Assembly (NCBI GenBank): GCA_046758705.1
Contig: JBHIAT010000059.1
Location: 1-19,198 of the forward strand
DNA: 19,198 nucleotides
Direction of reading: 5' to 3'
Source: Candidatus Bipolaricaulia bacterium
GTDB lineage: Bacteria > Bipolaricaulota > Bipolaricaulia > JBHIAT01
In this document: piece by piece, positions 550 through 19,198 of the stretch
Layout of the letters: the number at the start of each line of letters is the position of its first letter
Numbering within the stretch: position 1 is the stretch's first letter
Program-made: the position numbers and the translations under genes
Notes under the pieces: model-generated
Told to the model about the DNA's origin: nothing
What the model saw: the letters and a program-made list of their open reading frames with translations, nothing else
The model's database searches: none

Positions 550-553
550 GAAG

Positions 554-3587: not shown

Positions 3588-3611
3588 CGATCGGGGCGGG
3601 ATCCTATCTGC

Positions 3612-4202: not shown

Positions 4203-4210
4203 CCTGATCT

Positions 4211-4239: not shown

Positions 4240-4240
4240 G

Positions 4241-4269
4241 TTGAAATTTAACCTCCATCGCCCTATATT
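4241..4269 (+). promoter_or_regulatory. Putative sigma70 promoter for the Nudix gene (TTGAAA-N17-TATATT)
   Basis: TTGAAA at 4241-4246 and TATATT at 4264-4269 are each 5/6 consensus with a 17-nt spacer, ending 14 nt before ATG 4284. Confidence 0.65.
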
Positions 4270-4283
4270 CGGGGAGATGCGTC

Positions 4284-4856
4284 ATGGATATCCAGAGTCG
4301 GATAACGGTCGAAACGATCCGGGATGTGCTCGCCCGTGAGAAGAAGCGTCGTCTCGGAGGGGGCGATCTGAAGCCCTCGGCGGTTCTCTTTCCGATGTTC
4401 GAGCGAGACGGCCAGCTGTGCATGCTGTTCACCCAACGGACCGAGACGGTCGCTCACCACAAAGGTCAGATCTCGTTCCCGGGCGGTGTGCAAGATCCGG
4501 AGGATGAGACGCTCCTTGAGACTGCGTTGCGAGAGGCCCACGAGGAGATCGGGCTCCGTTCCGAGGATGTGGAGCTCCTCGGGGAGTTGGACGATGTCTT
4601 AACCGTCTCCTCCGGATTTGTGATCACCCCGTTCGTGGGGCTCATCCCCTGGCCGTACCGGTTTCAGGTGAACCAGCGGGAGGTGGCGCAGCTGATTGAG
4701 GTCCCGGCTGCGGCGCTGGTCGATGAGCGTCGCTTTCGGGTGGAAGTTTGGGCATCACACGAAGTCTACTTTTATGAGTACCAGAGCTATACGATCTGGG
4801 GGGCGACCGCCCACATCCTCAAAAGATTTTTCGATCGGATCGGGGATGCGTTATAA
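4284..4856 (+). CDS. Nudix hydrolase, CoA pyrophosphatase (NudL/PCD1-like) subfamily
   Basis: SAVL, LFTQRT..VAHHKGQISFPGG (NuCoA motif), Nudix box GGVQDPEDETLLETALREAHEEIG, C-terminal IWGATA. Confidence 0.9.
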   Translation: MDIQSRITVETIRDVLAREKKRRLGGGDLKPSAVLFPMFERDGQLCMLFTQRTETVAHHKGQISFPGGVQDPEDETLLETALREAHEEIGLRSEDVELLGELDDVLTVSSGFVITPFVGLIPWPYRFQVNQREVAQLIEVPAAALVDERRFRVEVWASHEVYFYEYQSYTIWGATAHILKRFFDRIGDAL

Positions 4857-4861
4857 ACTGT

Positions 4862-6868: not shown

Positions 6869-9210
6869 AAAATCCTCGGCACCAGGCGCAGGACGGATCG
6901 GGTGACCCGTTCCACCTCCGACTGCGACCAGGCGATGGGCACCCCTTCACCACGTTGCCACAGGGGAAGCAGGTCATCGTAGTGGGGCGAAACGGGGTTG
7001 CCGGACTGACCGCCGGGCAGTACGAACCGGCTCGCTTCCCAGTTCCCTACATCAACGACCATTCGCAACGAGGCGATGGCGGCGGGATTGGCTGTGGGAG
7101 CGATTGGATCCGTGGCCGCCTGGCCGACGGTGTTGGCATCGCCACCCCAGGGGAAGGGCCCCAGGTTGAACACCCGGTCGAGGGCTGCTCGCTCTCCCAC
7201 CGGGTGGCGCAGGGTCAGTGGCCGGATGTGCCCCCAGGCCCATTGGCGAGGGTCGTCGCCATAGTCCTGCCTCAGGGTCCGGATGATCGTGGTCAAGGCA
7301 TCCGCCATCTCCTGCGGCCAGGGCCGCTCAAACCACCCTTCCGGTTGCTCCCGGAGGAGGCGGACCAGGTGACCGACGCGTCGCACGGTGAAGAGAGAAT
7401 ATGGGACGAGCGGGGTAAAACCCGTGCCGAGGGCCCATTGTGTAGCACGCGGAGCCTTGGTCTCCACCATCCGCCGGACCATCTCAGTCACGAAGAGTTC
7501 AAAGATGGTGGCGGCCGGAGAGCCGGCTGTCACCACGCCGCCCCAGGTCTCCAGCAAGGCGAGGGCGTTGCGGGCTTCATCGGTCTCGGCGGGTGTGGCC
7601 AGGACGATGTCATGCAACTCACGCCAGGGGAGGGATTTTTGGTCCATCTGGAGTGCCTGTACACTGGCCAGATCCCAGTCATGGCGGCCATCGAGCGCTT
7701 CCACGATGCGAGCCAGACGATAGCCGTCAATCCAGTCTACTCCCAGGAATGGGTCCTCATCTTCGGGGGTTGGCCGGGTGTTGGCGCTAGCGACGAAGCC
7801 GGTTTCTGGATTGGCCAGGTGAGGCATCTTATTAAAGGGGATTGGAGCGTTTTCCCATCCGACCTCCGGGTCCCACCCTGGGAGTGGGATAGTTCCCCAT
7901 CCCTTCCGCCGTTGCGGGGCCTCGCCCACCAGCTGCCAACCGACGGTGCCGGAGGTGTCCGCGTAGACCATGTTGAACGATGCGAATGGCCATTCTGCGA
8001 GAGCACGCCGGAACGCTTCAAAGCTACGCGCACGGTGAATCTGAAAGAACCCCTTCGCCGGCCGAGGGTCCAGCCAGGTGGCGCGCAGGGAGATTGCCCC
8101 GACCTCGCCCTCCAGCGCCGGGCCGATGATGGGACCTCGGGGGGTAACCAAAACCTCCTCCTCGACGGTTTCCCCACCCTTAACCCGGATGATTTCCAGC
8201 CGGGTTTCGCAACGGACAAATTGGTCGCCCTCTCGGATGCTCCGTCCGTCGGGACCGATCTCTTCGATGAACAGGTCGGTGTTGTCCAACAGGCCAGCGG
8301 TCACTCCCCAGGCGGCGGTGTCGTTGTGGCCCACGAAGAAGCCTGGGACTCCGATAAAGGCGGCCCCAGCGACGGCCCAGTCAGGCGTGCGGACGTGAGC
8401 CAGGTACCAATGTGGGGGAAGGGCAGGGGCAAGGTGAGGGTCGTTGGCCAGAAGGGCTCGCCCTGTGGCGGTGTGGGACGGGGCAATGGCCCAGTTGTTC
8501 GACCCGCCGCCCTGGCCGACGGTTGCCGTGAAAACGGCCAGATCCTCGGCCAGTCGGTCGACCGTGCTACCAGCGAGTGCAGTAGGTGGGGATGTGACGG
8601 GGAGCCATTCCGGATATGCGGGGTCAAGAGCCGCCAACGCCTCAGGCCCATCTTCGCTGAGGATCTTGAGGCGCGCCAGTTCGATGTCCCAGTTGGAGGC
8701 CAGGGTGAAGGACAACAGTTTGCCCACCGCCAGGACGTCGGCGGCGCGGTACGGGGTGGACTGGGTTCGTAGCAGGGTGAACTCGTGGGCTGGTCGGCGG
8801 CATCCTCGCTTCGCGCCATCGGTGACCCCTCGAGCATAGGCCGCTAGTGTTTGACGGTTCTCGTCGTCGAGAGCTTCCAACTGTTGTTCGGCGGCGTTGT
8901 GGAAACCAATCCGTCGAGACAGACGATCCAGAGGGAGCGCCTCAGGACCAATGAGCTCAGCCAAGGTGCCACGCGTGACGCGGAGCAGTCCTTCGATCTG
9001 AAACGCGCGGTCCTGTCCGTGACAGAACCCGAGACCGTACCAGGCGTCCTCATCCCGTTCCGTTTCAATGTAGGGGATGCCGTAGCGATCACGCCGGATC
9101 AATACCGGTTGATTGATGCCGGGGATCTTCAGAGTGCCGGTGGTGATAGGGAGACGGCGGCCAAGCAGCAGACGGAACAGTAGGCGGGGGATGTTCATTG
9201 GGATCTCCAT
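6865..9210 (-). CDS. Penicillin acylase family (S45) Ntn-hydrolase
   Basis: RDRYGIPYI, GFCHGQDRAFQ, beta-chain start SNNW (Ser codon 8500-8502), ANDPHL, GHN..AWG, NMVYAD, SAN, GGQSG.P.SPHYDD. The start is either ATG 9210 or ATG 9198 (preceded by GGAG). The stop overlaps the S9 start (ATGA at 6865-6868). Confidence 0.94.
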   Translation of the reverse strand: MEIPMNIPRLLFRLLLGRRLPITTGTLKIPGINQPVLIRRDRYGIPYIETERDEDAWYGLGFCHGQDRAFQIEGLLRVTRGTLAELIGPEALPLDRLSRRIGFHNAAEQQLEALDDENRQTLAAYARGVTDGAKRGCRRPAHEFTLLRTQSTPYRAADVLAVGKLLSFTLASNWDIELARLKILSEDGPEALAALDPAYPEWLPVTSPPTALAGSTVDRLAEDLAVFTATVGQGGGSNNWAIAPSHTATGRALLANDPHLAPALPPHWYLAHVRTPDWAVAGAAFIGVPGFFVGHNDTAAWGVTAGLLDNTDLFIEEIGPDGRSIREGDQFVRCETRLEIIRVKGGETVEEEVLVTPRGPIIGPALEGEVGAISLRATWLDPRPAKGFFQIHRARSFEAFRRALAEWPFASFNMVYADTSGTVGWQLVGEAPQRRKGWGTIPLPGWDPEVGWENAPIPFNKMPHLANPETGFVASANTRPTPEDEDPFLGVDWIDGYRLARIVEALDGRHDWDLASVQALQMDQKSLPWRELHDIVLATPAETDEARNALALLETWGGVVTAGSPAATIFELFVTEMVRRMVETKAPRATQWALGTGFTPLVPYSLFTVRRVGHLVRLLREQPEGWFERPWPQEMADALTTIIRTLRQDYGDDPRQWAWGHIRPLTLRHPVGERAALDRVFNLGPFPWGGDANTVGQAATDPIAPTANPAAIASLRMVVDVGNWEASRFVLPGGQSGNPVSPHYDDLLPLWQRGEGVPIAWSQSEVERVTRSVLRLVPRIL

Positions 9211-9218
9211 CGACGATA

Positions 9219-10670
9219 TTAAACTGTATAGGTTGAAGCTGCGGTAGTACCTCCTCGCCCTGTCCAGTTAGTATGGAAAAATTCACCTCTGGGTTTGTCA
9301 ACTCGTTCGTAAGTATGTGCGCCGAAGTAGTCACGTTGAGCCTGTAAAAGATTGGCTGGTAATCTTTCACTGCGATAGCCGTCATAGAATGCAAGGGCTG
9401 AGCTAATGGCCGGCATCGGGATGCCCATTTCAACAGCAGTGGTTACCACTTTACGCCATGAGGACTGAGCCTTTTCGACAGCATCTTTGAAAAACGGGTC
9501 GAGCAGTAAATTATCGATATTTGGATTATTGTCGAAGGCGTCTTTAATCTTTCCTAAGAATACTGACCGAATGATGCAGCCACCCCGCCACATCAGAGCG
9601 ATACCTCCATAATTCAGATTCCATTTATATTCCTCGGCAGCCGCTTGCATAAGTTGATAGCCCTGTGCATAGCTGACTATTTTAGAAGCATACAAAGCCT
9701 TGCGCAAATCATCGATGAAAGCATCTTTATCAGCTTTAAATTCCGGTTTTGGGCCTGAAAGGACTTTCGAGGCCGCGACACGTTTTTCCTTAAGGGCTGA
9801 AAGGCAGCGAGCGAAAACAGCTTCGCCTATCAATGTTAATGGCTGGCCTAAATCCAAAGCTTCAATTGCTGTCCATTTGCCAGTTCCTTTTTGTCCGGCA
9901 GTATCAAGGATAAGGTCAATGACCTCATTCCCGTCTTGATCTTTATACCCGAGAATGTCACGTGTAATTTCAATCAGGTATGAATTCAACTCGCCCTCAT
10001 ACCATTGAGAGAAGACTTCGTGCATTTGCTGATTTGTCATCCCGAGGCCTTGTTTCATTATCTGATATGTTTCACAAATCATCTGCATGTCGCCGTATTC
10101 GATTCCGTTGTGGACCATTTTTACGAAATGTCCGGCACCATTTTCACCGACCCAGTCGCAGCAAGGTTCGCCGTCATCAGTTTTAGCGCAAATTGCCTGA
10201 AATATGGGTTTTACATGTTCCCAGGCTTTTGGTGAACCGCCGGGCATGATCGATGGGCCTAATAAGGCGCCTTCTTCACCGCCTGAGACGCCTGTACCGA
10301 TGTAAAGCATGCCTTTACTTTCCACTAATTCTGTTCTGCGCATTGTGTCGGGAAAATGCGAATTACCTCCGTCGATGATAATGTCACCCTCATCGAGATA
10401 AGGTAGGATTTGGTCGATGACAGCATCGACCGCTTTGCCGGCTTTGACCATGAGCATAAGCTTGCGCGGAGTTTTCAATGAGGACACAAAGTCTTCTATT
10501 GATTTACAGCCGATGATATTTTTGCCTTTGGCTCTTGTGCTCAAAAAGTCATCAACTTTGGAAACCGTGCGATTATAACATGAGACGGTAAAGCCCTTGC
10601 TTTCCATATTGAGGATAAGATTCTCGCCCATGACCGCTAAACCGACGACACCGATGTCTGCTTTTGACAT
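9219..10670 (-). CDS. gnd: 6-phosphogluconate dehydrogenase, decarboxylating, NADP-type long form
   Basis: IGVVGLAVMGENL, YNRT, IDGGNS, GVSGGEEGA, VKMVHNGIEYGDMQ, QKGTGKWT, WRGGCIIRS, QAQRDYFGAHTY. SD AAGGAGG at 10678-10684. Confidence 0.98.
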   Translation of the reverse strand: MSKADIGVVGLAVMGENLILNMESKGFTVSCYNRTVSKVDDFLSTRAKGKNIIGCKSIEDFVSSLKTPRKLMLMVKAGKAVDAVIDQILPYLDEGDIIIDGGNSHFPDTMRRTELVESKGMLYIGTGVSGGEEGALLGPSIMPGGSPKAWEHVKPIFQAICAKTDDGEPCCDWVGENGAGHFVKMVHNGIEYGDMQMICETYQIMKQGLGMTNQQMHEVFSQWYEGELNSYLIEITRDILGYKDQDGNEVIDLILDTAGQKGTGKWTAIEALDLGQPLTLIGEAVFARCLSALKEKRVAASKVLSGPKPEFKADKDAFIDDLRKALYASKIVSYAQGYQLMQAAAEEYKWNLNYGGIALMWRGGCIIRSVFLGKIKDAFDNNPNIDNLLLDPFFKDAVEKAQSSWRKVVTTAVEMGIPMPAISSALAFYDGYRSERLPANLLQAQRDYFGAHTYERVDKPRGEFFHTNWTGRGGTTAASTYTV

Positions 10671-10698
10671 TTTTAATCCTCCTTAAAAGTTAATTTCC

Positions 10699-11976
10699 TT
10701 ATTGATCATTAAATCTATCTTTTGAAGACCACAGACCCAAAGAGGGATTTGAGATAAAGTATATTTGCTCATCGTTTGGTAAGTTATTGAAGCCATCTTT
10801 TAATTTTTTGGGATTATATTTTTTCATCATTTCTGAAAGATCAGCATATTCGAAATAGACGCTTTCTATTTCCTGTCTGGTTAATCTGCCCGGACAATAG
10901 GTAACTTCGAATCTGCCTTCAGAAGAGCCATGTATCAAATGCGCCGCGGCACTTAGGTTCTGTTTTAAATCTTCGTTTTCCTTAACGGCTTTTAAAACCT
11001 TTGGTGTTTCGATATATCCATACTTTCTGATTAATTTGTCTATTTGGGCATCTTCACCGAATTCCGAAAGTCCCGGAGCCAATACAATTAACTGACCGCC
11101 ATCGGCCATTGCCATCCGCGTTCGATAAATGCTTTTATTTCCCAGCCAGGTGCTTTTATACTCATCCGGGTCGAGATAGACAACAACCTTTTTCAGAGGT
11201 TCATCCAAAAGCTGAAAATTGACCTTGAGAGAAAGCTCGGCAGCGAGATTGAAACATTCAATGTCATCACCGATAAACAGGCCGCGCAGTATATTTTGGC
11301 CGTCATCATCGGGGCTCACGACTGTGAGGATATAAATAATGGGCAAATCTTTTGCAAAATGCTCAGAGGCATAATTCAAAACTTTTCTTACAGGCGTATC
11401 CGCTCGGCCCATCATTTTTTCCATGCCATATGCAGCACCGAGAAAGTGACTTTTATTTATTCCCTCTGTACCCCCTGTACCTATAAGAACATTTTTATTA
11501 TAATTTGCCATTCCAACCACTTCGTGAGGGACCACCTGGCCAATGGAAAGAATCAGGTCAAAATTTCCTTCTACAAGCAATTTATCTACCTGCGCCGGCC
11601 AGCTGTAATCGACCAGACCCTTGCTTACCTCTTTAACAAATTCGGCAGGTACTTCACCGAGAGTTATCAGGCCGGTTCTCCAATTATGCTCGCGGAAAAG
11701 AGAAACCGGAGTTTGGCCGAACATCTCGGTAAGTTGCTTTTCGGTCATGGGAGAATGAGTCCCTAACGCAGGTAGGATATCCGTAAGCCGGTCACCGTAA
11801 TATTGCCACAGCATTTCTGTTATATCACCGGCTCGGGAGTGAAACCTGGTAAAATCAGGGGGTATGGCCAAAACTTTATTTTTGTGCTCGAGCTTTTCCA
11901 TTGATGAACAAACAGCATCTCTGAGTTCATCTGGGGTTATACAATCATTTTCGTGTCCGCGTTTAAATAGTAACAT
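10699..11976 (-). CDS. LarA-superfamily nickel-pincer (NPN) 2-hydroxyacid epimerase, probably GntE-like (mannonate/gluconate 2-epimerase)
   Basis: PPDFTR (D41/R44), ALGTH (H74), VVPHEVVGMANYNK (H151/K161) and INKSH (H177) match the LarA D72/R75/H108/H174/K184/H200 pattern. The substrate is inferred from gene context. Confidence 0.85.
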   Translation of the reverse strand: MLLFKRGHENDCITPDELRDAVCSSMEKLEHKNKVLAIPPDFTRFHSRAGDITEMLWQYYGDRLTDILPALGTHSPMTEKQLTEMFGQTPVSLFREHNWRTGLITLGEVPAEFVKEVSKGLVDYSWPAQVDKLLVEGNFDLILSIGQVVPHEVVGMANYNKNVLIGTGGTEGINKSHFLGAAYGMEKMMGRADTPVRKVLNYASEHFAKDLPIIYILTVVSPDDDGQNILRGLFIGDDIECFNLAAELSLKVNFQLLDEPLKKVVVYLDPDEYKSTWLGNKSIYRTRMAMADGGQLIVLAPGLSEFGEDAQIDKLIRKYGYIETPKVLKAVKENEDLKQNLSAAAHLIHGSSEGRFEVTYCPGRLTRQEIESVYFEYADLSEMMKKYNPKKLKDGFNNLPNDEQIYFISNPSLGLWSSKDRFNDQ

Positions 11977-11978
11977 TT

Positions 11979-12884
11979 TTACCAGCTTGGATGTTCAGGT
12001 AAGTATTCGTCAAATTCCGTGATTAGTTCTTCTTCGTATTGGCCAGTATATTCGCCGCTGATGAACTTATCAAAAGCTTCATCGTGGAATCTCTTCCAGG
12101 ACTCCGGTTCGTCTCCGGGATTGATGGGGTAAAATAGGGCGTTATTTGCTCTTGCCGCTTTCAGGTCACCGGGGGCATCGCCAATCATGAGGATATGGTT
12201 CTGTTCGTACCTACCCTTGGTCGCGTATTCAAGATGCTGGGCTTTGGTTCCCATCTCCTGGCCCGCGATGACCTTGACAAACCTGGCAATATCATGCTCC
12301 TGCCATTCTCTTTCGAGCGCTTCGTTGGGTGTCGCTGAGACGACAACGACATCGGCTTGGGTGGAGATCTTTTCGAGGCTCTCGCGAACATACGGGAAAG
12401 GAGGAATATCTTTGACTATTTCAACGATAAGTTCGTTCACCCTTTTGCTCCATTTAAGGACATGTTGAAGCTCCCGTTTAGCATCTTCATCGTTTGCCTG
12501 GTCGATTGCCTGGGCAAGCCCCTCGTCGCTCAACAGGCTATTCGGATCGTTTACCCAATTGCAATAATATCTGAATTCAGGGATTTCAAATCCGCGTTCT
12601 TTTACGACCGGATGAGATGGAAGAAGTTCGGTAAGGATTCGGACGATCGTTTGATGACGATTTGCTCCGCGGGTCTTTGAAAACAGATCGGCAAATTCTT
12701 TGCATTGTCTTGCAGCTTCTGCTACCGGCTGAAGGTGGAAATAGGCGATCATCATCGGGCAAAAACACTCGCTCTGTTTGATTTCCATGGTATCAAAAAC
12801 ACAGCCGTCTGAATCTATCCCTACGAAGAACTCTTTTGTCGGTTTAAACTCTTTCAGCGGCCTTGCAGGGTCAGAATTTGTCAT
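11979..12884 (-). CDS. HAD-superfamily phosphatase/phosphotransferase with a large C1-position cap
   Basis: Motif I GIDSDGCVFDT, motif II VVVSAT, motif III Lys (GTKAQH), motif IV MIGDAPGD. Start moved to ATG 12884 (MTNSDP), which follows SD AAAGGA just after the uxuB stop. Confidence 0.88.
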   Translation of the reverse strand: MTNSDPARPLKEFKPTKEFFVGIDSDGCVFDTMEIKQSECFCPMMIAYFHLQPVAEAARQCKEFADLFSKTRGANRHQTIVRILTELLPSHPVVKERGFEIPEFRYYCNWVNDPNSLLSDEGLAQAIDQANDEDAKRELQHVLKWSKRVNELIVEIVKDIPPFPYVRESLEKISTQADVVVVSATPNEALEREWQEHDIARFVKVIAGQEMGTKAQHLEYATKGRYEQNHILMIGDAPGDLKAARANNALFYPINPGDEPESWKRFHDEAFDKFISGEYTGQYEEELITEFDEYLPEHPSW

Positions 12885-12897
12885 TTTTTGTCCTTTT

Positions 12898-13716
12898 TTA
12901 GACGCCACTAAATGCACTAAAGCCGCCGTCTACCGGTACGACAATGCCCGTGACAAATTTGGCGGCGTCACTCAGCAGCCAAATTACAGTTCCAGTTAAG
13001 TCTTCAGGCTGGCCAAATCTTGCCATAGGCGTATGGTCGACTATCGTTTTGCCCCTGGGAGTCAGGTCGCCCGTTTTTTCATCGGTCAGCAAGAAACGGT
13101 TCTGTTCGGTCAGGAAAAAACCCGGAGCGATCGCGTTTACACGGATATCTTTAGAATAGTTCTGGCACATATGAACCGCAAGCCATTGTGTGAAATTGCT
13201 GATGGCGGCTTTGGCGGCTGAATAAGCGGGAATTTTCGTCAAAGGTCTGAAGGCATTCATACTGGAAATATTTAAGATCACACCACTTTTATTCTCAGCC
13301 ATGTGTTTGGCAAAGACCTGTGAAGGCAAGAGTGTCCCAAGAAAATTCAAATCGAAAACAAAACGAACAGCATCAGGAGGTAAATCAAAGAAAGGTAAAT
13401 CCTCAGTGGTTGTGGCTTCTTTTTTGTTGCCCCCGGCTCCGTTAATTAAGATGTCGATGTTGCCAAATTCAGAGATGACGTTTTCTTTTGCTTTTTCCAG
13501 AGTCTCTTTTTGAAGAACATTGCACGTTACCGCTATCGCAGTGCCGCCTTGAGCGGTAATATCATGGACGACTTTTTTTGCGGCATCTTCTATAAGATCG
13601 AGTACTGCGATTTTTGCTTTGGCTTTAGCTAAATCTTTTGCTAATTGCCCACAAAGTACGCCACCTGCTCCGGTGATTACGATCGTTTTATCCGATAAAT
13701 CAAATAATGGATGCAT
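12898..13716 (-). CDS. uxuB: SDR-family D-mannonate oxidoreductase (fructuronate reductase)
   Basis: ITGAGGVLCG, LINGAGGN, NISSM, TKIPAYSAAKAAISNFTQWLAVH, RVNAIAPGFFLTEQN, VPVDGGFSAFSGV closely resemble B. subtilis UxuB (YjmF)-type SDRs as recalled. The gene is adjacent to uxaE. Confidence 0.85.
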   Translation of the reverse strand: MHPLFDLSDKTIVITGAGGVLCGQLAKDLAKAKAKIAVLDLIEDAAKKVVHDITAQGGTAIAVTCNVLQKETLEKAKENVISEFGNIDILINGAGGNKKEATTTEDLPFFDLPPDAVRFVFDLNFLGTLLPSQVFAKHMAENKSGVILNISSMNAFRPLTKIPAYSAAKAAISNFTQWLAVHMCQNYSKDIRVNAIAPGFFLTEQNRFLLTDEKTGDLTPRGKTIVDHTPMARFGQPEDLTGTVIWLLSDAAKFVTGIVVPVDGGFSAFSGV

Positions 13717-13728
13717 AATAATCCCCTT

Positions 13729-14976
13729 TTAATCAATAAATATAGGTTTTATGTGTCTTTGGTAAATGTTTTCAGTGACATTTTGGGCGATGGTTTGCTC
13801 GTATTGTTTTAAGACGTTTAGATATTCGTCTTGCATTTCTGCTGCAACTTTGTATCCAACGTGTAAAAGCTGTCTTACGTTCAGGTTGTAATCATCACAG
13901 TTCTGATCATGGCGCAGGACATTGGCAAATTTCTCAGCTGTCCATGTATCAACTTCTTCAGGTTCAGGCAGCTTATCTTTATCTATATCGATAACGGGGC
14001 TATAAGGACCACACAGCTCGTCAAAACGTGAAAGCGCTTTCCTATAAACATCCTTAGCAATCTTTAAACCCGTTCCGCCAGCAGAGGCTAAGCCGATCAA
14101 TTCCTCAAGCCATGTAGTGCCGGCGGTTTTGATATGTAAACCCGCATTGGATTTTTTGAGAGCTTTATTCATTGGTTTATAAATGGAAAATTTATCACTT
14201 CCAGAATGAACACTCAATTTCAAGTTCTTCGGTAAACCAAATTTCTCAATTGCAAATGCAATAACGGCTAAATCCTGATTAAACTCTGTCTCAAACTGGG
14301 GGACATCGCCAACATAGTCAACGCCCTTGTTGAATCGGCCTGTAAACTTAGGCGCTATGGTTTGAGCGGGTATACCTTCGTCGGCTATGGCTGCAAGGAT
14401 GAAAAACATTTCGACGGGGCTTTGCGGTAAGTCTGTTTCGTCGATTGAAACTTCAGTAATAAAATTATCAGCACCTTTGGCAGTTTCTATGTGACGATAA
14501 ATTTTGCCTGCTTGTTTTACAGCATCAAGCACTTTAGAAGCAATTTCTCTGATATTATGTTCAGTTATTTCAATATTATCATCTATACCGGGAATATTCA
14601 ACTTTCCGATATATTTTTTGTTCTTATTAACGAATTGATCTATTTCATTTTGACTTGCAGTTTTGCCAATGAAATCTGCAACGTCAAGAGTGAAAAAATC
14701 GCTTGAATCCATGAAAAGATCGACGTTGGTAAGGTTTATATGGTCGGCATCGACATAATATGAACCTTTATAGTCTAAATCTTTTACAGCACTGTCAGCT
14801 TCGCTGCGTACCGACGTAGGTTCGGTATGAATTATTGTATGTTCACGATGTGACTTATTCCATACAGGTACGATTTCAACGCCCTGTTTTGTAGCCTGGA
14901 TGATTGCCTGTAATTGAGCTTTTCCCTGATGAGCAAATCTGTCACCAACACCAAACGAATATTTCTCAAGTTTCAT
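13729..14976 (-). CDS. uxaE: Tagaturonate/fructuronate epimerase
   Basis: SFGVGDRF, DADH, EVSIDET, APKFTGRFNKGVDY, KLSVHSGSDKFSIY, HIKTAGTTWLE. The start overlaps the pfk stop (ATGA at 14973-14976). Confidence 0.92.
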   Translation of the reverse strand: MKLEKYSFGVGDRFAHQGKAQLQAIIQATKQGVEIVPVWNKSHREHTIIHTEPTSVRSEADSAVKDLDYKGSYYVDADHINLTNVDLFMDSSDFFTLDVADFIGKTASQNEIDQFVNKNKKYIGKLNIPGIDDNIEITEHNIREIASKVLDAVKQAGKIYRHIETAKGADNFITEVSIDETDLPQSPVEMFFILAAIADEGIPAQTIAPKFTGRFNKGVDYVGDVPQFETEFNQDLAVIAFAIEKFGLPKNLKLSVHSGSDKFSIYKPMNKALKKSNAGLHIKTAGTTWLEELIGLASAGGTGLKIAKDVYRKALSRFDELCGPYSPVIDIDKDKLPEPEEVDTWTAEKFANVLRHDQNCDDYNLNVRQLLHVGYKVAAEMQDEYLNVLKQYEQTIAQNVTENIYQRHIKPIFID

Positions 14977-16238
14977 AAATATTTTGGAAGTTTCTTTTCA
15001 ATGGGTTTACGTTCAAATCTCATATAAACCGGCAGGCCATTGTCACCGATTGTGATAGGTGCCTGGCCTTGTACTAAAGGTCGAACGTAATCAAGCATAG
15101 CCTGTGTTACGCCATTACCGTTTTCATTGATATATTCGGCTGGGATCTTTTTTTCACCATTAGCAACATCGCTCAGTTCAGCGAGGCCTGTGGTGCATTT
15201 GTACTCAGCGCCACCTTCTCGAACCAAAGTGACCATTTTGCCGGTTACGCCGTTGAGGGCATTTTTTACGGCCATTTGGCCGCACAGATAGGCTTCATTG
15301 AGATCCGTAAGGGATGCAAAGTGCATAGCGCTTCTCTGATTTGTTCCTAACTTATTGAAACGTGTTTTAATGCCTACTTCTTTTTCAATGACCGTTTTCA
15401 GCATTTCGGCCACCCCGCCAAGCTGGGCATGGCCAAAACTGTCTGTGCCCAAGGCACTGTTTTCAGCAGTAACATAATTTCCATTTTCATCTTTCAGTCC
15501 TTCGCCAACAACGATGAAGACTCTGCCGATATTTTGGTAAACTTCTTTGACATCCTTAACCAGTTTTTCAAAACTAAAGGCAGCTTCAGGCACATATATA
15601 AGATGCGGAGCATCCTGTTCGAGCTGATGGGCAAGACCTGTAGCTGCGGCGATCCAGCCCGCGTTTCTTCCCATCACTTCAAGAATTGTACATGTGTCGG
15701 TCGTATAAAGGGCTTCGGTGTCTCTGCCTGCGTTGGCTGCACTTGTTGCAACGTACTTTGCAACACTGCCATATCCGGGGCAATGATCGGTACAGGCCAG
15801 GTCATTGTCTATCGTTTTCGGGACCCCCATGCAAATCAGTTCATAGCCGCTATCGGCGGCGAGGTTGTTGATCTTGTCAGCGGTATCCATTGAATCATTA
15901 CCGCCTATGTAAAAGAAGTAGTGAATATTGTGGGCCTTGAAAACGTCGATGATTCTTTCGTAATCGGCTTTTGATCCTTCAAGGGACTTCAACTTATAGC
16001 GACATGAGCCGAGCGCTGCCGCGGGCGTTCTTTTCAAATTTTCGATAGTTTCAGGTTTTTCGGCGGTAATATCGAACAAATCTTCGTTTAGAACCCCCAA
16101 TATTCCATTAATAGCTCCAAATACTTTTTCCACTTTCGCTGATTTAATGAGTTCCTGAATCACTCCGCAGGCACTTGAATTGATGACAGTGGTTGGTCCG
16201 CCAGATTGTGCTACTATTGCATTTGGTTTGCCTGACAT
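14973..16238 (-). CDS. pfp: PfkA-family phosphofructokinase, pyrophosphate-dependent type
   Basis: QSGGPT.VIN, LGSCRYKL, GGNDS and PKTIDND (Asp and Lys at the two positions diagnostic for PPi use), EVMGRNAGW. Start moved to ATG 16238 (MSGKPNA), which follows SD AGGAG at 16246-16250. Confidence 0.9.
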   Translation of the reverse strand: MSGKPNAIVAQSGGPTTVINSSACGVIQELIKSAKVEKVFGAINGILGVLNEDLFDITAEKPETIENLKRTPAAALGSCRYKLKSLEGSKADYERIIDVFKAHNIHYFFYIGGNDSMDTADKINNLAADSGYELICMGVPKTIDNDLACTDHCPGYGSVAKYVATSAANAGRDTEALYTTDTCTILEVMGRNAGWIAAATGLAHQLEQDAPHLIYVPEAAFSFEKLVKDVKEVYQNIGRVFIVVGEGLKDENGNYVTAENSALGTDSFGHAQLGGVAEMLKTVIEKEVGIKTRFNKLGTNQRSAMHFASLTDLNEAYLCGQMAVKNALNGVTGKMVTLVREGGAEYKCTTGLAELSDVANGEKKIPAEYINENGNGVTQAMLDYVRPLVQGQAPITIGDNGLPVYMRFERKPIEKKLPKYL

Positions 16239-16257
16239 ATATTTGCTCCTAATATTC

Positions 16258-16286
16258 ATTTTAATTCAGATCTCATAACAATGCAA
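16258..16286 (-). promoter_or_regulatory. Putative sigma70 promoter internal to the cassette (TTGCAT-N17-TAAAAT)
   Basis: -35 at 16281-16286 and -10 at 16258-16263 with a 17-nt spacer, just upstream of the pfk SD. Confidence 0.55.
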
Positions 16287-16289
16287 GAT

Positions 16290-16300
16290 ATTTTATCACA
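16290..16300 (-). promoter_or_regulatory. Putative extended -10 promoter (TGTG-A-TAAAAT)
   Basis: Matches TRTGnTAnnnT. There is no good -35 at 17-nt spacing. Confidence 0.5.
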
Positions 16301-16328
16301 CGAGACGAGACAGGGTGGGAACACTTTT

Positions 16329-16365
16329 TTCTATCCGGTTCTATTCAGTTCTATTTCAATTCTAT
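16329..16365. repeat. Four TTCTAT direct repeats at 10/10/11-bp spacing
   Basis: TTCTAT at 16329, 16339, 16349 and 16360. The last copy contains the dehydrogenase stop codon. Confidence 0.75.
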
Positions 16366-17345
16366 CCCTTGAAAGTCTCCGAATTTACAAGTGTCGGCGG
16401 TCGCTCGCCTTTCAGAGCGCTGATGACATTTTGGACCGCCAGTTTGGCCATGTTGATGCGCGTCTCGGTCGTGGCGCTTCCGAGGTGAGGCAGGAGCACG
16501 ACAGACTCTTCGAGTTTCACCAGTTCCGGATGAACCTTGGGCTCTTCTTCGTAGACATCCAAGGCAGCACCCCGGATCTCTCCAGTCTTCAACGCTTCGA
16601 CCAGCGCTGCTTCGTCGACCACCGGGCCGCGAGACGAGTTGATCAGAATCGCGTTGGACTTCATCTTTTTGAACGCTTCGGCGTTGAACAGATGCCGGGT
16701 CTGTTCGGTCAGCGGGACGTGAGCGGTCACGAAGTCGCTGCGTTCCAGCAGTTCGTCCATGCTGACGTATTGGGCGCCCAGTTTCTGCTCTGCCCTTTCG
16801 TTGCGGATCGCGTCATAGTATAAGACGGTCATATCGAAGCCCAGCCGACCGCGTTTGGCGACCGAAAAGCCGATGCGGCCGATGCCGACGACGCCGAGCG
16901 TCTTGCCGTAGATGTCGACGCCGAGGTGGGGTTGGAACAACTCCCAGCCTTCGTACTTTCCGGCCCGCATGTAGCGATCAGCCTCAGGAATCCTGCGGGC
17001 GGCGCTCATCAGCAGCGAGAACGCGAGATCGGCGGTCGTCTCGGTCAACACGTCCGGTGTATTGGAGACCATGATACCACGCTCGGTCGCCGCCGGGATA
17101 TCGATGTTGTCGAACCCGACGGCGACGTTGGCCACGATCTTCAGATTGGGGTTGGCGCCGAGCAGCTTGCCGTCGATCTTGTCGGTGAGCAGGCAGATGA
17201 GCGCATCGACGTCCCGAATCTTTTCGGCCAGTTCGGCCTTGGGGAGCGGGATGTCGGCTTCGTTCATCTCAAACTCGATTCCTGCGTCCTTCAGCACACC
17301 CAGTGCCTCATCGAACAACTTCCGCGAGATATAGACCTTGCTCAT
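16362..17345 (-). CDS. D-2-hydroxyacid dehydrogenase, glyoxylate/hydroxypyruvate/2-ketogluconate reductase (GyaR/GhrB-like)
   Basis: AVGFDNID, NTPDVLTETTADLA, GVVGIGRIG, and catalytic Arg/Glu/His in NSSRG, DVYEEEP, PHLGSAT. The Asp in YYDAIR suggests NAD(H) preference. Confidence 0.93.
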   Translation of the reverse strand: MSKVYISRKLFDEALGVLKDAGIEFEMNEADIPLPKAELAEKIRDVDALICLLTDKIDGKLLGANPNLKIVANVAVGFDNIDIPAATERGIMVSNTPDVLTETTADLAFSLLMSAARRIPEADRYMRAGKYEGWELFQPHLGVDIYGKTLGVVGIGRIGFSVAKRGRLGFDMTVLYYDAIRNERAEQKLGAQYVSMDELLERSDFVTAHVPLTEQTRHLFNAEAFKKMKSNAILINSSRGPVVDEAALVEALKTGEIRGAALDVYEEEPKVHPELVKLEESVVLLPHLGSATTETRINMAKLAVQNVISALKGERPPTLVNSETFKG

Positions 17346-17375
17346 TCGGGGCCCCCCTCTTAACGTTTTGAATTT

Positions 17376-17747
17376 CTAATCGATTTGGCGAATCTCGATA
17401 TTGGCAGCGCTGTCGATCGTTTTGAACGCCTGTGGGTCTTTGACTTTACCGATCACGGTGACGTCGGAAGCCGCCTTCGGTTTATCCCCAGTGCTCGCCG
17501 GGGTTGGTCCGTAAAAGATGCAGAACCCCCGGCCGGGAGGCCAGTAGGCAAGATCGCCGACCTCAACCTCCTGCTTCGGCTTCTCGTTCTCCAGTTTGAC
17601 CGGGATCTCGAAGTAGATCTCCTCGCCCCAGAAGTTCCCCGAAGCCTGGATCGGAAGCGCTTCATAGATCCACTTGGCCGTTTGGGTATCGTTGAGCTCG
17701 GCCGCGAAGATCTGCTCGTCGATCATGATCTCGATCTGCTTTCCCAT
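17376..17747 (-). CDS. Cyclophilin-like fold protein (TM1367/DUF369 type)
   Basis: ALP, WGEEIYFEIPV, GDLAYWPPGRGFCIFYGPTP, VTVIGKV. SD GGAGGTGA at 17757-17764. Confidence 0.85.
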   Translation of the reverse strand: MGKQIEIMIDEQIFAAELNDTQTAKWIYEALPIQASGNFWGEEIYFEIPVKLENEKPKQEVEVGDLAYWPPGRGFCIFYGPTPASTGDKPKAASDVTVIGKVKDPQAFKTIDSAANIEIRQID

Positions 17748-17768
17748 CTCGCTGGTTCACCTCCGTTT

Positions 17769-18692
17769 CTACACCTGCACCTGGCCCCACGCCTCCTGGA
17801 ACACTCGCTTGGCATTGGCGATGACGATCTGTGGAGGCTCGTCCGGCAGAGGCTTGACCTCGAACCCGACGAACGGCTTCGTCTTGCTACCCAAGAACCC
17901 GATCTCGAACAGAGTTTCCAGGTACTCGACCACCTCGGGGACGTCGTTCTCACCGTCCTCGATGCCGAACCGGGGGTGCTGGTCTCCGTAAGCGGGGTGG
18001 TCTGGATTTCGCATCACACAGTTGCTGATGTGGGCATGGACCAGATGGTCCTTGGCGGTATGAAGCGCTTCGGCGATCGTTTCGTGCTGGATTGGGATAT
18101 GACCGAGGTCGAGCATCAGGCCGAAGTTCGGATGTTCGTTGCGCACCACCTCGGAGACCCGGACGCCGTCGGCGTTCGGACCGATGAGCGACTTCTTCTC
18201 GATGTCGGGATCGAAGGTCTCAAGGGTGATCCCCAGGTTGCCTTCCGATTCCGCGTACGCGCAGATCTGGTTCAGGGAGTCGATCAACAGCTCGATCTGT
18301 TCCTCCCGCGCTCCGGGATCGGCTGGCGCCGGTCCGCTGAGCAACGTCATTCGGCCGGCTCCAAGCTCGTACGCTTGATCCACAGCCTGCTTCAACACCT
18401 CGATCGCCTGCGCTCGTTTGTCAGGATCCGGATCGTTAGGGTTGTGACCTCCCAAGAGGACGATCGGCTGAGCTCCGAAGCCGACCTTAACATGGGCACG
18501 ACGAAGCAGAAAGGCCGCTTCGCGACGGACGGACGCATCGTTGATCGGACCGACCTCGACCGCGGTGAAGAACGGATCTTCTGCGATCTCCGTCAGGGTT
18601 TCAATGATCGGTCCGTTCCCACGGATCACCTCCGGATAGGCCATGAAATGGACGATGCTGAGCTCAAAGTAGTTTTGGTACGGTTCGTTCAC
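17769..18692 (-). CDS. Xylose-isomerase-like TIM-barrel sugar (acid/phosphate) isomerase/epimerase
   Basis: Metal-ligand pattern ITLETFD / MLDLGH / HAHISN / GFEVKP, plus AYELGA. GTG start preceded by GGGGAG. Confidence 0.82.
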   Translation of the reverse strand: MNEPYQNYFELSIVHFMAYPEVIRGNGPIIETLTEIAEDPFFTAVEVGPINDASVRREAAFLLRRAHVKVGFGAQPIVLLGGHNPNDPDPDKRAQAIEVLKQAVDQAYELGAGRMTLLSGPAPADPGAREEQIELLIDSLNQICAYAESEGNLGITLETFDPDIEKKSLIGPNADGVRVSEVVRNEHPNFGLMLDLGHIPIQHETIAEALHTAKDHLVHAHISNCVMRNPDHPAYGDQHPRFGIEDGENDVPEVVEYLETLFEIGFLGSKTKPFVGFEVKPLPDEPPQIVIANAKRVFQEAWGQVQV

Positions 18693-18716
18693 CGTGGATC
18701 TCCCCTCTAGCCAACC

Positions 18717-18744
18717 ATTATGATAATCTTGCCGAAAATGTCAA
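18717..18744 (-). promoter_or_regulatory. Putative sigma70 promoter (TTGACA-N16-CATAAT) for the TIM-barrel operon
   Basis: Perfect -35 at 18739-18744 and -10 at 18717-18722. The -10 is overlapped by the inverted repeat ATTAT-G-ATAAT (18717-18727). Confidence 0.65.
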
Positions 18745-18862
18745 ACGAACTGGGACAACCACTGGGCGATCCCACGGTCCATCCCCCGCTTTCAGACAAG
18801 GCCCTCGAATGCCTCTTCGATATTCAGGGTCTTGCCCTCATCCAGATTGTGTAGGGATTCCT

Positions 18863-19132
18863 CTAGGAGGTTCTCCCGAGGCGGCGTCCGCTCCAGCGAA
18901 AGGTAACTCCGGAACCTGCAATCTTTTTCATCGCCTCCAAGACCGTGTCGCTGGGCTTTCCATAAATCTCGAAGCTGACGATCTCCATGAACTCGTACGC
19001 CTTCTTTGCTATTTCGCCAACCCCTTGCATGTGCAACTCCATAGACTTCGCATCGGGGAAGATATGTACGACACTCACCTCGGTGCCGTCCTCGTTGACG
19101 TAGGCGAGATGGGCGACCGTTAGGTTTTGTTG
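18863..19132 (-). pseudogene. N-terminally truncated fragment of a small ABM-like (dimeric alpha/beta barrel) protein
   Basis: The frame is open upstream of the annotated GTG (..VAHLAYVNEDGTEVSVVHIFPDAKSMELHM..EIYGKPSD..GSGV) but is closed by TGA at 19133-19135, with no in-frame ATG/GTG before the conserved-looking part. The family assignment is from recall only. Confidence 0.5.
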
Positions 19133-19154
19133 TCATGTTCCAAAGTTATTATCG

Positions 19155-19185
19155 GTCAATACACCGGACTTCAGTCCGCGTGGAC
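19155..19185. repeat. Imperfect palindrome, REP-like or terminator-like hairpin
   Basis: GTC-AATA-CAC-CGGAC-TTCA-GTCCG-C-GTG-GAC, followed by a pyrimidine run on the + strand. Confidence 0.55.
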
Positions 19186-19198
19186 TTTCTCCTCTTTC

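Follow-up and report, generated by a model that had tools for sequence, protein, structure and literature searches.

A uronate operon leading into the pentose phosphate pathway with no recognisable hexonate kinase, and a candidate HAD-based phosphorylation step

How can a uronate operon feed 6-phosphogluconate to Gnd when it carries no recognisable hexonate kinase? This question is raised by a gene cluster in a contig of Candidatus Bipolaricaulia bacterium, whose 19,198 nucleotides are here called the window. The open reading frames and family scans bear out what the initial annotation had described, namely six co-oriented minus-strand genes at 9219-16238 in the order pfp, uxaE, uxuB, HAD, larA-like and gnd, and uphold the family call made for each (Table 1); the family calls are all above their curated cut-offs, while the NCBIfam scan of uxaE gave no match. 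The gaps of -4, 12, 13, 2 and 28 nt are also as described, given a pfp start at the ATG at 16238, which has an AGGAG 7 nt upstream, and a HAD start at 12884, which is common to its relatives (alignment A1). In the ORF list all six reading frames are intact, and from the spacing alone the genes appear to be co-transcribed; the description of the cluster as lying "behind one promoter" fared less well, since a consensus scan of the 123 nt upstream of pfp gave no sigma-70-type site. The gene order recurs, entire or in part, across related loci, so the arrangement is not a matter of chance. As had been claimed, the family scans found no uxuA, kdgK, eda, GntK or FGGY gene within the window, and the assignments support reading the cluster as an operon that leads uronates into the pentose phosphate pathway and lacks any recognisable hexonate kinase.

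Table 1. Features of the operon and its surroundings, with family matches (bit score; curated cut-off in parentheses)
Feature	Positions	Strand	Size	Assignment	Match
pfp	14973..16238	-	421 aa	PPi-type phosphofructokinase paralogue ("PFK-U")	PF00365; NF010675 (PPi-PFK), 562 (273)
uxaE	13729..14976	-	415 aa	tagaturonate/fructuronate epimerase family	PF16257, 207
uxuB	12898..13716	-	272 aa	UxuB-type SDR, fructuronate reductase / D-mannonate oxidoreductase	NF006132, 404 (281)
HAD	11979..12884	-	301 aa	HAD superfamily, subfamily IA, large helical cap; candidate phosphoryl-transfer step	PF13419, 33
larA-like	10699..11976	-	425 aa	LarA superfamily, group 18	NF052594 "NPN_18_hexonate", 669 (500)
gnd	9219..10670	-	483 aa	NADP-dependent decarboxylating 6-phosphogluconate dehydrogenase	TIGR00873, 795 (427)
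leader	16239..16361	-	123 nt	presumed promoter region between host 2-hydroxyacid dehydrogenase gene and pfp	read directly
low-GC island	9219..16340	.		43.7% GC vs 57.1% in the genome	

Family membership and conserved linkage suggest the steps. UxaE would convert tagaturonate into fructuronate, the UxuB-type SDR would reduce fructuronate to D-mannonate, the LarA group-18 nickel-pincer (NPN) enzyme, a putative hexonate or 6-phosphohexonate 2-epimerase, would invert C2, and Gnd would oxidise 6-phosphogluconate to ribulose 5-phosphate. We surveyed 80 related larA loci, counting neighbours within 8 kb of larA: gnd is found in 59 and UxuB in 45, relatives of uxaE with 55-75% identity occupy the same position, and the linkage of the group-18 gene (LarAH18) to gnd, SDR and uxaC is conserved. 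Desguin 2020 names group 18 "putative hexonate epimerase", and the supplement's entry for it gives the same context, that is, SDR, 6PGDH and glucuronate isomerase (PMC7583248 and supplement). The core route, which takes uronate through mannonate to 6-phosphogluconate with a group-18 LarA epimerase and Gnd, has already been published as a hypothesis, and the "candidate new route" of the initial annotation shrinks to a candidate new way to perform one step, with HAD and a PPi-PFK. The group-18 loci of that study have an orthologous epimerase (NF052594) and like neighbours, but they carry a ribokinase-family (PfkB) kinase where HAD stands in the window and in 25 of the 80 related loci, and its context table lists neither HAD nor PFK (PMC7583248).

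Two described pathways come close to this one. The galacturonate route proposed for Thermotoga maritima, credited to Rodionova et al. 2012 as cited in PMC7583248 and PMC6978723, runs from UxaE through UxaD/UxuB, GntE (LarAH20) and GntK to Gnd, and the activity of GntE2 has been demonstrated (PMC7583248). It follows the same logic, shares four families with the window (UxaE epimerase, fructuronate reductase, LarA-superfamily C2 epimerase and Gnd) and exits likewise to the pentose phosphate pathway via Gnd; however, its LarA enzyme belongs to group 20 and the window's to group 18, whose activity is putative, and it has GntK, whereas the window's operon has HAD and a PPi-PFK instead. In Lactobacillus suebicus, the mannonate kinase / 6-phosphomannonate 2-epimerase pathway of Valk et al. 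2020, which points to a redox-neutral route to ribulose 5-phosphate, also takes mannonate to 6-phosphogluconate by phosphorylation and C2 epimerisation, followed by Gnd; the phosphorylation described for that species depends on ATP in extracts and is not assigned to genes, and the pathway includes neither HAD nor PPi-PFK, unlike the window's operon (PMC6978723).

Among the 2070 seven-kb windows of the assembly, none has a lower GC content than the island that holds the operon. Per-run contigs of X1, X2 and X3 span its two junctions with even depth, and no flanking repeats of at least 14 nt were found at the island ends. In the LarA tree the window's sequence sits on the side of Planctomycetota, whereas the host DnaK is nearest to named Bipolaricaulota/Acetothermia proteins (67-71% identity). 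By these comparisons, the operon was acquired horizontally, and recently, from Planctomycetota by a Bipolaricaulota-like host. It is quite possible, though we would put it below even, that this host carries the island as a recently arrived passenger without function, a reading compatible with any mechanism. Besides its GC content and the discordance between LarA and DnaK, such a reading is favoured by searches of the 93.9%-complete host genome, in which UxaC, UxuA, LarC and LarB were not found and LarE had no match above cut-off; the six intact frames speak against it, as do the roughly 6% of the host genome that is unassembled and a second, distant LarA homologue on contig C69, which hints at cofactor supply.

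The distribution of HAD bears most directly on the missing step. HAD occurs in 26 of the 80 loci and an operon kinase in 36 (PfkB_a 15, PfkB_b 15, GntK-type 6), and the two are nearly exclusive, with 25 loci holding HAD only, 35 a kinase only, one both and 19 neither (Fisher p = 1.1e-7); the exclusion persists when the count is limited to the 49 loci that extend 4 kb or more in each direction (17, 21, 1 and 10, respectively; p = 1.9e-5). The exclusivity of HAD and gntK that had been predicted holds, with HAD in none of the six GntK-type loci; HAD does share a locus with a PfkB_b kinase once, at L022, which goes part of the way towards the evidence named beforehand against a HAD role. The swap between HAD and kinase recurs between sister LarA lineages (L020 vs L021; L014/L015 vs L034; L011/L013 vs L031; L040/51/52/59 vs GntK-type loci), and the HAD state requires at least 13 changes on the LarA tree. 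A phylogenetically corrected test, underpowered with six independent pairs, found the kinase state opposite in 3-4 and the same in none (p = 0.125-0.25). Neither UxuB nor LarA splits by operon type, which suggests that the same step has been swapped.

The PPi-PFK tracks HAD in turn, in line with the pairing first envisaged. Within the loci, PFK is found in ten, each of them a HAD locus (p = 3.2e-6), and 16 of the 26 HAD loci have none. At the level of genomes, where phylum partly confounds the figures, a PRK14072-type PFK is present in 26 of 27 HAD genomes vs 8 of 23 without HAD, and in 5/6 vs 0/13 among the 19 genomes not titled Planctomycetota (p = 5e-4), while in 401 evenly drawn Planctomycetota the PFK clade and HAD co-occur with an odds ratio of 9.1 (p = 3.9e-6). 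In this planctomycete sample the PFK clade showed no association with LarAH18 (1/22 genomes, p = 0.71). The window's enzyme, PFK-U, has the motifs PKTIDND, GGNDS and MGR; its nearest solved chains are the PRK14072 PPi-PFKs 3k2q and 3hno, which it matches in subfamily, PPi signature and length. Unlike an ordinary enzyme of this type, it forms part of a uronate operon, is strictly accompanied by HAD and, in planctomycetes, comes as a second copy in addition to a resident PPi-PFK. Operon-linked copies from planctomycete MAGs share 70-82% identity with it, the resident enzymes of those MAGs only 40-44%.

Our tentative reading, held with slightly less than even confidence, is that the hexonate receives its phosphate through the beta-phosphoglucomutase-like HAD, whose donor the PPi-PFK regenerates. 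HAD would take the place of the PfkB-type or GntK-type hexonate kinase of sister operons and act as a phosphotransferase, with its catalytic Asp24 phosphorylated by a non-ATP donor and mannonate or gluconate then accepting the phosphoryl group at the 6-OH. The likeliest donor would be fructose 1,6-bisphosphate, which a PRK14072-type PPi-PFK, either genome-resident or, as in the window, operon-borne, would remake from fructose 6-phosphate and PPi, with PPi-driven phosphorylation as the net outcome; acetyl phosphate or PPi itself could serve instead.

The displacement of kinases by HAD, with one co-occurrence in 80 loci, counts for this reading, and so do the confinement of PFK to HAD loci and its association with HAD at genome level, the eight PFK+HAD genomes among the nine that lack any PfkB homologue, the scarcity of GntK-type kinases and the properties of the protein. 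All four HAD motifs (DSDG, S/T, K, GDAPGD) are invariant among 18 relatives, as are the cap residues K36, R59, R72, N75 and R76, so that in alignment the catalytic set is intact and the cap basic; the predicted model (pLDDT 88.5) has a fold resembling sugar-phosphate phosphatases and beta-phosphoglucomutases. There is also a supporting precedent in the beta-phosphoglucomutase of Lactococcus lactis, whose Asp is phosphorylated by fructose 1,6-bisphosphate (Km about 100 uM) or acetyl phosphate and goes on to phosphorylate a sugar hydroxyl (PMC7608592). The two enzymes have in common the fold class, the DxD nucleophile and the acid-base pair; however, a PDB sequence search with the window's HAD gave no match and hence no detectable relationship, its cap is much larger, the TM-scores are just 0.32-0.38, and the L. 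lactis enzyme is a mutase, while what we propose for the window's HAD is net transfer to another substrate. Other points count against the phosphotransferase reading: the PfkB_b at L022, the underpowered outcome of the phylogenetically corrected test, the lack of a tie between the PFK clade and LarAH18, a fold that is most similar to phosphatases (the MtlD mannitol-1-phosphatase domain, YniC and phosphoglycolate phosphatases), and a HAD family wider than the pathway, given that 42 of the 56 HAD genomes in the planctomycete sample have no LarAH18 and that paralogues from glycoside-hydrolase loci nest within the operon HAD clade.

These same fold matches favour an explanation by ordinary parts, which we consider unlikely but worth weighing seriously. 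Here a kinase encoded elsewhere (XylB-like FGGY, KdgK-like or another PfkB) would phosphorylate the hexonate, HAD would be a sugar-phosphate or phospho-sugar-acid phosphatase serving as a safety valve or in metabolite repair, and pfp would be a standard enzyme handling fructose 6-phosphate or sedoheptulose 7-phosphate derived from ribulose 5-phosphate. Characterised HAD IA enzymes of this fold are mostly plain phosphatases, and both the HAD family and the PFK clade are widespread outside LarAH18 genomes. A kinase elsewhere, which the initial annotation had named as evidence against its proposal, is partly borne out: FGGY kinases occur in 49 of 50 genomes, the window's genome has seven together with one KdgK-like gene, and of the 22 genomes whose larA locus includes HAD, nine encode an a- or b-type PfkB in another place, which weighs against the phosphotransferase reading too. 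However, seven PFK+HAD genomes contributed 14 FGGY kinases, none of which came near the gntK_FGGY cut-off, and a GntK-type kinase is present in 1 of 50 genomes; the PFK+HAD genomes examined do carry a XylB-like FGGY kinase, scoring under its cut-off, that could be the missing one. Seven HAD genomes among the first 50 are without any PfkB homologue, and a phosphatase in a catabolic operon would be expected alongside a kinase, whereas a kinase is found in 1/26 HAD loci vs 35/54 others. As to the PFK, fructose 6-phosphate or sedoheptulose 7-phosphate needs phosphorylation downstream of ribulose 5-phosphate, and PPi-PFKs are reviewed as serving the pentose phosphate pathway through the latter (the sedoheptulose bisphosphate variant; PMC12203962), which gives an ordinary reason for its presence. 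In two genomes a PFK-U-like gene adjoins a Cgl0159-like putative aldolase. Transaldolase presence does not distinguish PFK-U genomes from others, so the sedoheptulose reading gains no support, and the HAD-only occurrence of this PFK type outside Planctomycetota is left unexplained.

It is improbable that the missing kinase is the PFK paralogue. In such a scheme it would use PPi to phosphorylate fructuronate at the C1-OH, fructuronate being analogous to fructose 6-phosphate but bearing a 6-carboxylate instead of the 6-phosphate; HAD would be an accessory, and the SDR and LarAH18 would act on phosphorylated intermediates (6-phosphomannonate to 6-phosphogluconate). The 16 HAD loci without PFK, the PFK clade in 21 planctomycete genomes without LarAH18 (58-66% identity), and UxuB and LarA alike in PFK-type and PfkB-type operons, although their substrates would differ, all speak against it, and the absence of PFK without HAD from the 80 loci would be left unexplained. 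In its favour, L. suebicus extracts phosphorylate mannonate before epimerising 6-phosphomannonate (PMC6978723). Nine of the 80 genomes have no PfkB homologue (E <= 1e-25), and eight of these are PFK+HAD genomes; in the ninth, a GntK gene adjoins larA. In Ignavibacteriota and Bacteroidota, moreover, PFK stands exactly where sister loci have a GntK-type or PfkB kinase. In both operon-linked PFK lineages, furthermore, a Lys of 3k2q and 3hno is replaced by Thr or Pro, and a Tyr common to these two and the resident PFKs by Thr, positions that we take to be R162 and H249 of the E. coli enzyme; yet PFK-U retains the equivalents of R243 and R252, the 6-phosphate-binding residues of E. coli PfkA.

The six genes of the minus-strand operon, called from an ORF listing together with Pfam and NCBIfam scans, are compiled in the table below, which also gives the positions of features from related loci. 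The initial annotation had described six co-oriented genes with gaps of -4, 12, 13, 2 and 28 nt, and this layout was reproduced with starts at 16238 for pfp, where AGGAG precedes the start codon on direct reading, and at 12884 for the HAD gene, the same start as in its relatives according to the alignment. A single promoter had also been proposed for the operon, but the consensus promoter scan returned no site upstream of pfp. Neither set of flanking genes in the window has a sugar-acid connection: one comprises grpE-dnaK-dnaJ, Ham1, NUDIX, an S9 peptidase and penicillin amidase, and the other encodes a GhrB-like 2-hydroxyacid dehydrogenase together with a cyclophilin-like and a TIM-barrel protein.

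Positions and family assignments of the operon genes and of features discussed from related loci (L numbers)
Feature	Position	Strand	Assignment
pfp	14973-16238	minus	PPi-PFK subfamily NF010675 (PRK14072), 562 bits, cut-off 273
uxaE	13729-14976	minus	PF16257
uxuB-type SDR	12898-13716	minus	NF006132, 404 bits
HAD	11979-12884	minus	PF13419, weak
LarA homologue	10699-11976	minus	NF052594 'NPN_18_hexonate', 669 bits, cut-off 500; runner-up family 42 bits
gnd	9219-10670	minus	TIGR00873, 795 bits, cut-off 427; NADP-dependent decarboxylating 6-phosphogluconate dehydrogenase
PdxB-family gene	L045:11399-12535		NF001309, 456 bits, cut-off 434; plus DUF3410
Second resident PFK type (alignment A2)	L127:54-1274; L128:72-1289; L138:58-1290		PPi-PFK subfamily, 421 bits
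Operon-PFK relatives	L174:4974-5999; L175:7314-8339		61% identity
URO-D-like / MtaA-like examples	L017, L053, L069 (cluster 32); L115:6191-7255; L170:3834-5120		PF01208, weak

The operon combines genes for UxaE, a fructuronate reductase, a LarA-family epimerase and Gnd, as expected of the Thermotoga-type UxaE-UxuB-GntE-GntK-Gnd route, and related loci show the same combination. A difference lies in the gluconate kinase: the Thermotoga-type route has GntK, whereas the Pfam and NCBIfam scans of the window found no GntK of the FGGY or the GntK/IdnK type.

A scan with one genome per species yielded 378 stretches encoding LarAH18 (LarA-superfamily group 18), the best 80 of which were analysed, with locus genes counted by tblastn within 8 kb of larA; other counts rest on tblastn or on GC3-filtered ORFs. 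Gnd was present in 59 of these 80 loci, UxuB in 45, UxaE in 30, UxaC in 19, the HAD in 26 and PFK, the pfp product, in 10, while the operon-encoded sugar-acid kinases were PfkB subtype a (15 loci), PfkB subtype b (15) and a GntK/IdnK type (6; TIGR01313, 176 bits, over the cut-off). Among the best 80 of 378, the HAD alone is encoded in 25 loci, a kinase alone in 35, both in one (L022) and neither in 19 (Fisher p = 1.1e-7), and the exclusion is also seen when the set is restricted to the 49 loci that have 4 kb or more on each side (p = 1.9e-5). The mutual exclusivity of HAD and kinase raised by the initial annotation is thus real, although L022 keeps it from being absolute. All ten PFK loci of this set of 80 are HAD loci (p = 3.2e-6).

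The LarA tree calls for at least 13 changes of HAD state, and the type of operon differs between sister lineages. Six independent pairs could be formed on well-supported branches, of which 3-4 have opposite kinase states and none the same state (p = 0.125-0.25, the pairs being too few for significance). Since neither UxuB nor LarA separates by operon type, these comparisons suggest that the HAD and the kinase were exchanged at the same step; the pattern is that of a kinase displaced non-orthologously by the HAD. Separately, 11 Bacteroidota and Ignavibacteriota loci carry a PdxB-family (4-phosphoerythronate dehydrogenase) gene between larA and gnd (in addition to L045, for example L025, L030, L033, L041, L044, L050, L068, L073, L080 and L087; cluster 8). 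As the known substrate of PdxB is an omega-phospho-2-hydroxy acid, this hints that such operons handle phosphorylated hexonates.

The whole-genome set consisted of the 50 genomes behind L008-L057 and 30 others. Within the first 50, the HAD is found in 28 genomes (27 at 49% identity or more, and G021 with a 33% relative), a PRK14072-type PFK in 34, FGGY kinases in 49 and GntK-type kinases in one. Queries for both PfkB subtypes gave no match at E <= 1e-25 in seven of the 50, all of which carry both PFK and HAD; for the other 30 genomes the subtype-b query alone, which picks up subtype a too, gave no match in two, one with PFK and HAD and one with a GntK gene adjoining larA. PfkB is therefore lacking in 8 of the 12 PFK+HAD genomes versus 1 of the 68 others (p = 1.5e-7). 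Of the 22 genomes, among the first 50, with the HAD in their larA locus, nine have PfkB subtype a or b elsewhere or, in L022, in the locus itself. Seven of the 22 have no PfkB, one has only weak matches, and five have only a PfkB subtype that is probably KdgK, as it adjoins Eda and an SDR in one genome. Fourteen FGGY proteins from seven PFK+HAD genomes, a subset of their FGGY matches, had as best matches xylulokinase (300-336 bits, cut-off 380), ribulokinase, rhamnulokinase or glycerol kinase, and they scored 133-231 bits on gntK_FGGY against a cut-off of 649.

With the phylogenetic confounding that all our PFK-HAD co-occurrence figures carry, a PRK14072-type PFK is present in 26 of 27 HAD genomes versus 8 of 23 genomes without HAD (p = 5e-6). 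For the 19 genomes without Planctomycetota in their title the proportions are 5/6 and 0/13 (p = 5e-4), and for the 31 titled Planctomycetota they are 21/21 and 8/10, a weak association (p = 0.10). Of 401 Planctomycetota sampled evenly, 22 have a member of the PFK clade (58-82% identity), 41 have LarAH18 and 56 have the HAD; here PFK and HAD co-occur (12/22 vs 44/379, odds ratio 9.1, p = 3.9e-6, with the same confounding), LarAH18 and HAD do so moderately (14/41 vs 42/360, p = 4e-4), and PFK and LarAH18 do not (1/22, p = 0.71). This distribution suggests that a PPi-PFK, supplied either by the genome or by the operon, would be an obligate companion of the HAD.

The HAD has the four motifs of its superfamily, DxD, S/T, K and (G)DxxxD. 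Its catalytic set (D24, D26, S183/T185, K214, D236 and D240) is invariant or nearly so in 18 sequences; D24 and D26, the nucleophile and acid-base pair, are kept by the 18 relatives, which also retain the basic cap residues K36, R59, R72 and R76. In the AlphaFold model (pLDDT 88.5) the core is Rossmann-like and the cap spans about 130 residues; helices at residues 30-157, between strand 1 and motif II, make it a helical C1 cap after motif I. In the Foldseek ranking (probability 1.00) the MtlD mannitol-1-phosphatase domain from A. baumannii came first, followed by an E. coli beta-PGM homologue, YniC, L. lactis beta-PGM and CbbY, and VIA-align matched the model to many HAD IA phosphatases (Z 12-14.6), to the BT2127 pyrophosphatase (Z 12.2) and to the HAD-fold kinase PtkA (Z 11.5). 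The fold likeness to beta-phosphoglucomutase is weak (TM-scores 0.32-0.38). A phmmer search of the PDB gave no match at E <= 1, the sole NCBIfam match was phosphoglycolate phosphatase at 25 bits, the ESM Atlas returned generic HAD clusters and nothing more, and the relatives, at least 8000 proteins, bear generic names only. Two genomes with PfkB-type larA loci contain HAD paralogues in loci with glycoside hydrolases, transporters and LacI; because the paralogues from glycoside-hydrolase loci nest within the operon clade, the activity of the HAD is, to judge from this tree, not hexonate-specific.

Other associations of the HAD were also observed. Two high-GC planctomycetes (L166 in G223 and L168 in G181) share a conserved order of ABC transporter, HAD, RidA, LarA-like and RuvB genes, with a LarA-like protein scoring 161-166 bits on NF052594 and hence of another LarA group, and the HAD of G177 (L169) is immediately preceded by genes for a full-length UxaE and an SDR. 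The linkage of HAD and LarA may therefore extend beyond group 18. URO-D-like or MtaA-like proteins recur beside larA-gnd loci and HAD paralogues (see table).

The solved structures nearest to the operon PFK are the PPi-PFKs 3k2q (E = 1e-115) and 3hno (E = 4e-108). PPi-type enzymes are marked by the Lys in P-K-TIDND and the Asp in GGxDS, and PKTIDND and GGNDS were read in the translation. For the substrate site, equivalents of E. coli R162, R243, H249 and R252, the fructose-6-phosphate site, were set by alignment with the ATP-PFKs of the same genome: R243 and R252 are retained, R162 is replaced by Thr (Lys in 3k2q and 3hno) and H249 by Thr (Tyr in resident PFKs and 3k2q). An apparent loss of the 6-phosphate site came from misassigning FGHAQLGG to GHxQRGG and was discarded, the true equivalent, TRFNKLGTNQR, having both arginines. 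Two lineages of PFK occur in the loci, one in planctomycetes (76-82% identical to that of the window) and one in Ignavibacteriota and Bacteroidota (about 40%), where the order is larA-PFK-HAD-gnd. The resident PFK of planctomycetes is 40-44% identical to that of the window, and seven of these planctomycetes also have the operon type (70-82%), which makes the latter a paralogue. Another type of resident PFK has no arginine at either of the positions aligned with E. coli R243 and R252, and it reads IGR where MGR would stand; despite its PFK fold it may act on a different substrate. In two planctomycetes (L174 and L175) the operon-PFK relatives adjoin a Cgl0159-like protein (PF22649) and an amidohydrolase_2 protein, an arrangement that may represent a kinase-aldolase pair. 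Whether PFK acts on sedoheptulose 7-phosphate was probed through the absence of transaldolase, which was mixed over 53 genomes and does not discriminate.

A phosphoryl shuttle would be the simplest chemistry that fits both the displacement and the companion pattern. PFK would convert PPi and F6P to F1,6BP, F1,6BP would charge the HAD (enzyme-Asp) to give F6P and enzyme-Asp~P, and enzyme-Asp~P would phosphorylate the hexonate to 6-phosphohexonate. Both HAD steps have a documented equivalent in the priming of beta-PGM, for which F1,6BP or acetyl phosphate serves as donor (PMC7608592). In a wider reading of this scheme, which we put forward tentatively and consider somewhat doubtful, the HAD and a PRK14072-type PPi-PFK would constitute a two-enzyme ATP-independent 'kinase', in which PFK charges F6P with PPi, the HAD aspartate passes the 1-phosphate of F1,6BP to the sugar acid and F6P is recycled, and duplicated HADs would serve further sugars in the same way in loci with glycoside hydrolases. 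Such a PPi-driven activation of sugars, not recognised until now, would be common among anaerobic Planctomycetota, from which it would have reached Ignavibacteriota, Bacteroidota and the Bipolaricaulota-like host together with its own PFK.

A more ordinary explanation carries substantial weight: the kinase would be encoded elsewhere, the HAD would be a phosphatase, and PFK would serve downstream glycolysis or the sedoheptulose bisphosphate shunt, a role for which there is precedent (PMC12203962). However, the near-perfect exclusion of operon kinases would still want explaining if the HAD were a phosphatase. That PFK itself is the kinase, acting on fructuronate, is a weaker proposal, because PFK is never found without the HAD in the loci and most HAD loci lack PFK; the argument for a fructuronate kinase was given up in its strong form once both 6-phosphate-site arginines proved to be retained.

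Should the HAD carry out the phosphorylation, alone or together with the PPi-PFK, a family of at least 8000 generically named hydrolases would gain a function, a phosphotransferase would be added as a solution to a step for which an ATP kinase was considered necessary, and PPi-PFK would have a new use. The uronic acids in pectin, and those in other polysaccharides, are an important source of carbon. For the fermentation of residues rich in pectin, a redox-neutral conversion of galacturonate to ribulose 5-phosphate is sought (PMC6978723).

PMC7583248 describes LarA group 18 as a 'putative hexonate epimerase' whose genomic context, for 25 members, includes an SDR (36%), 6-phosphogluconate dehydrogenase (32%), a ribokinase-family kinase (16%) and MFS, glucuronate isomerase and KduI proteins (12% each), and it assigns the epimerisation of mannonate to gluconate to groups 19 and 20; LarAH10 and LarAH15 also catalyse this reaction (PMC11770544). 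In extracts of L. suebicus, mannonate is phosphorylated with ATP and 6-phosphomannonate is then epimerised; that study assigned no genes to the mannonate kinase or the 6-phosphomannonate 2-epimerase (PMC6978723). A LarA-type epimerase on the way from uronates to ribulose 5-phosphate is therefore an element of a route already known, and the interpretation in the initial annotation is supported in part, for the exclusivity within the limit noted and not for a candidate new route. The HAD and PFK are absent from the accounts of the route in PMC7583248, PMC11770544 and PMC6978723, and a search outside the subscription journals found no literature tying either to this pathway; what is new here is the HAD/PFK variant. 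LarAH18 is a good candidate for the 6-phosphomannonate or mannonate 2-epimerase. Its signature residues were considered as a sign of a phosphate site and proved uninformative, being no more basic than those of groups 19 and 20; in the signatures of Desguin 2020, the last position is Ser in group 18 and Arg in the other two.

The contig of the window belongs to a 3.70-Mb assembly of 319 contigs that is 93.9% complete. The cluster has a GC content of 43.7% versus 57.1% for the genome, the lowest among the 2070 seven-kb windows of the assembly, and forms an island (9219-16340) between flanks (1-9218 and 16341-19198), the surrounding genome having 57-60% GC. In the LarA tree (81 rows), the LarA of the window falls on the Planctomycetota side, which has all 41 planctomycete rows, and the host DnaK is nearest to proteins named Bipolaricaulota/Acetothermia (67-71% identity). 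Judged by these affinities, the operon is an inter-phylum transfer of planctomycete-type genes into a Bipolaricaulota/Acetothermia-like host. The window has no integrase, and the island ends are not marked by repeats, direct or inverted, of at least 14 nt. A distance of 8 nt separates the gnd stop from the start codon of the host gene for penicillin amidase, which is high in GC, so transcription of the operon may continue into this host gene.

In the 93.9%-complete assembly, about 6% of the genome being unassembled, there was no match to UxaC (PF02614 and tblastn), the uronate isomerase that would provide tagaturonate or fructuronate, nor to UxuA, LarC (PF01969) or LarB (NF033503), and the best LarE matches reached 39 bits at most against a cut-off of 150; for this reason the pathway may be incomplete in this organism. 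LarC is present in three of five operon-bearing planctomycete genomes. No GntK/IdnK-type kinase (TIGR01313) was matched in the assembly, and its seven FGGY proteins score 22-326 bits against the gntK_FGGY cut-off of 649. In this genome, then, no cofactor genes (larB, larC, larE) are visible for the nickel-pincer enzyme, and a second, distant LarA homologue (24% identity) lies on contig C69.

A chimeric assembly is unlikely because contigs of three separate sequencing runs, all from one study and possibly the source samples themselves, span both junctions with even depth. In one of them, run X2, the depth over 10344-16371 of the window is 15.1-17.9 and that of the flanks 10.8-11.4, and the stretch 14113-14227 is also represented by two short alternative contigs. 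A second population in that sample may carry the island as well.
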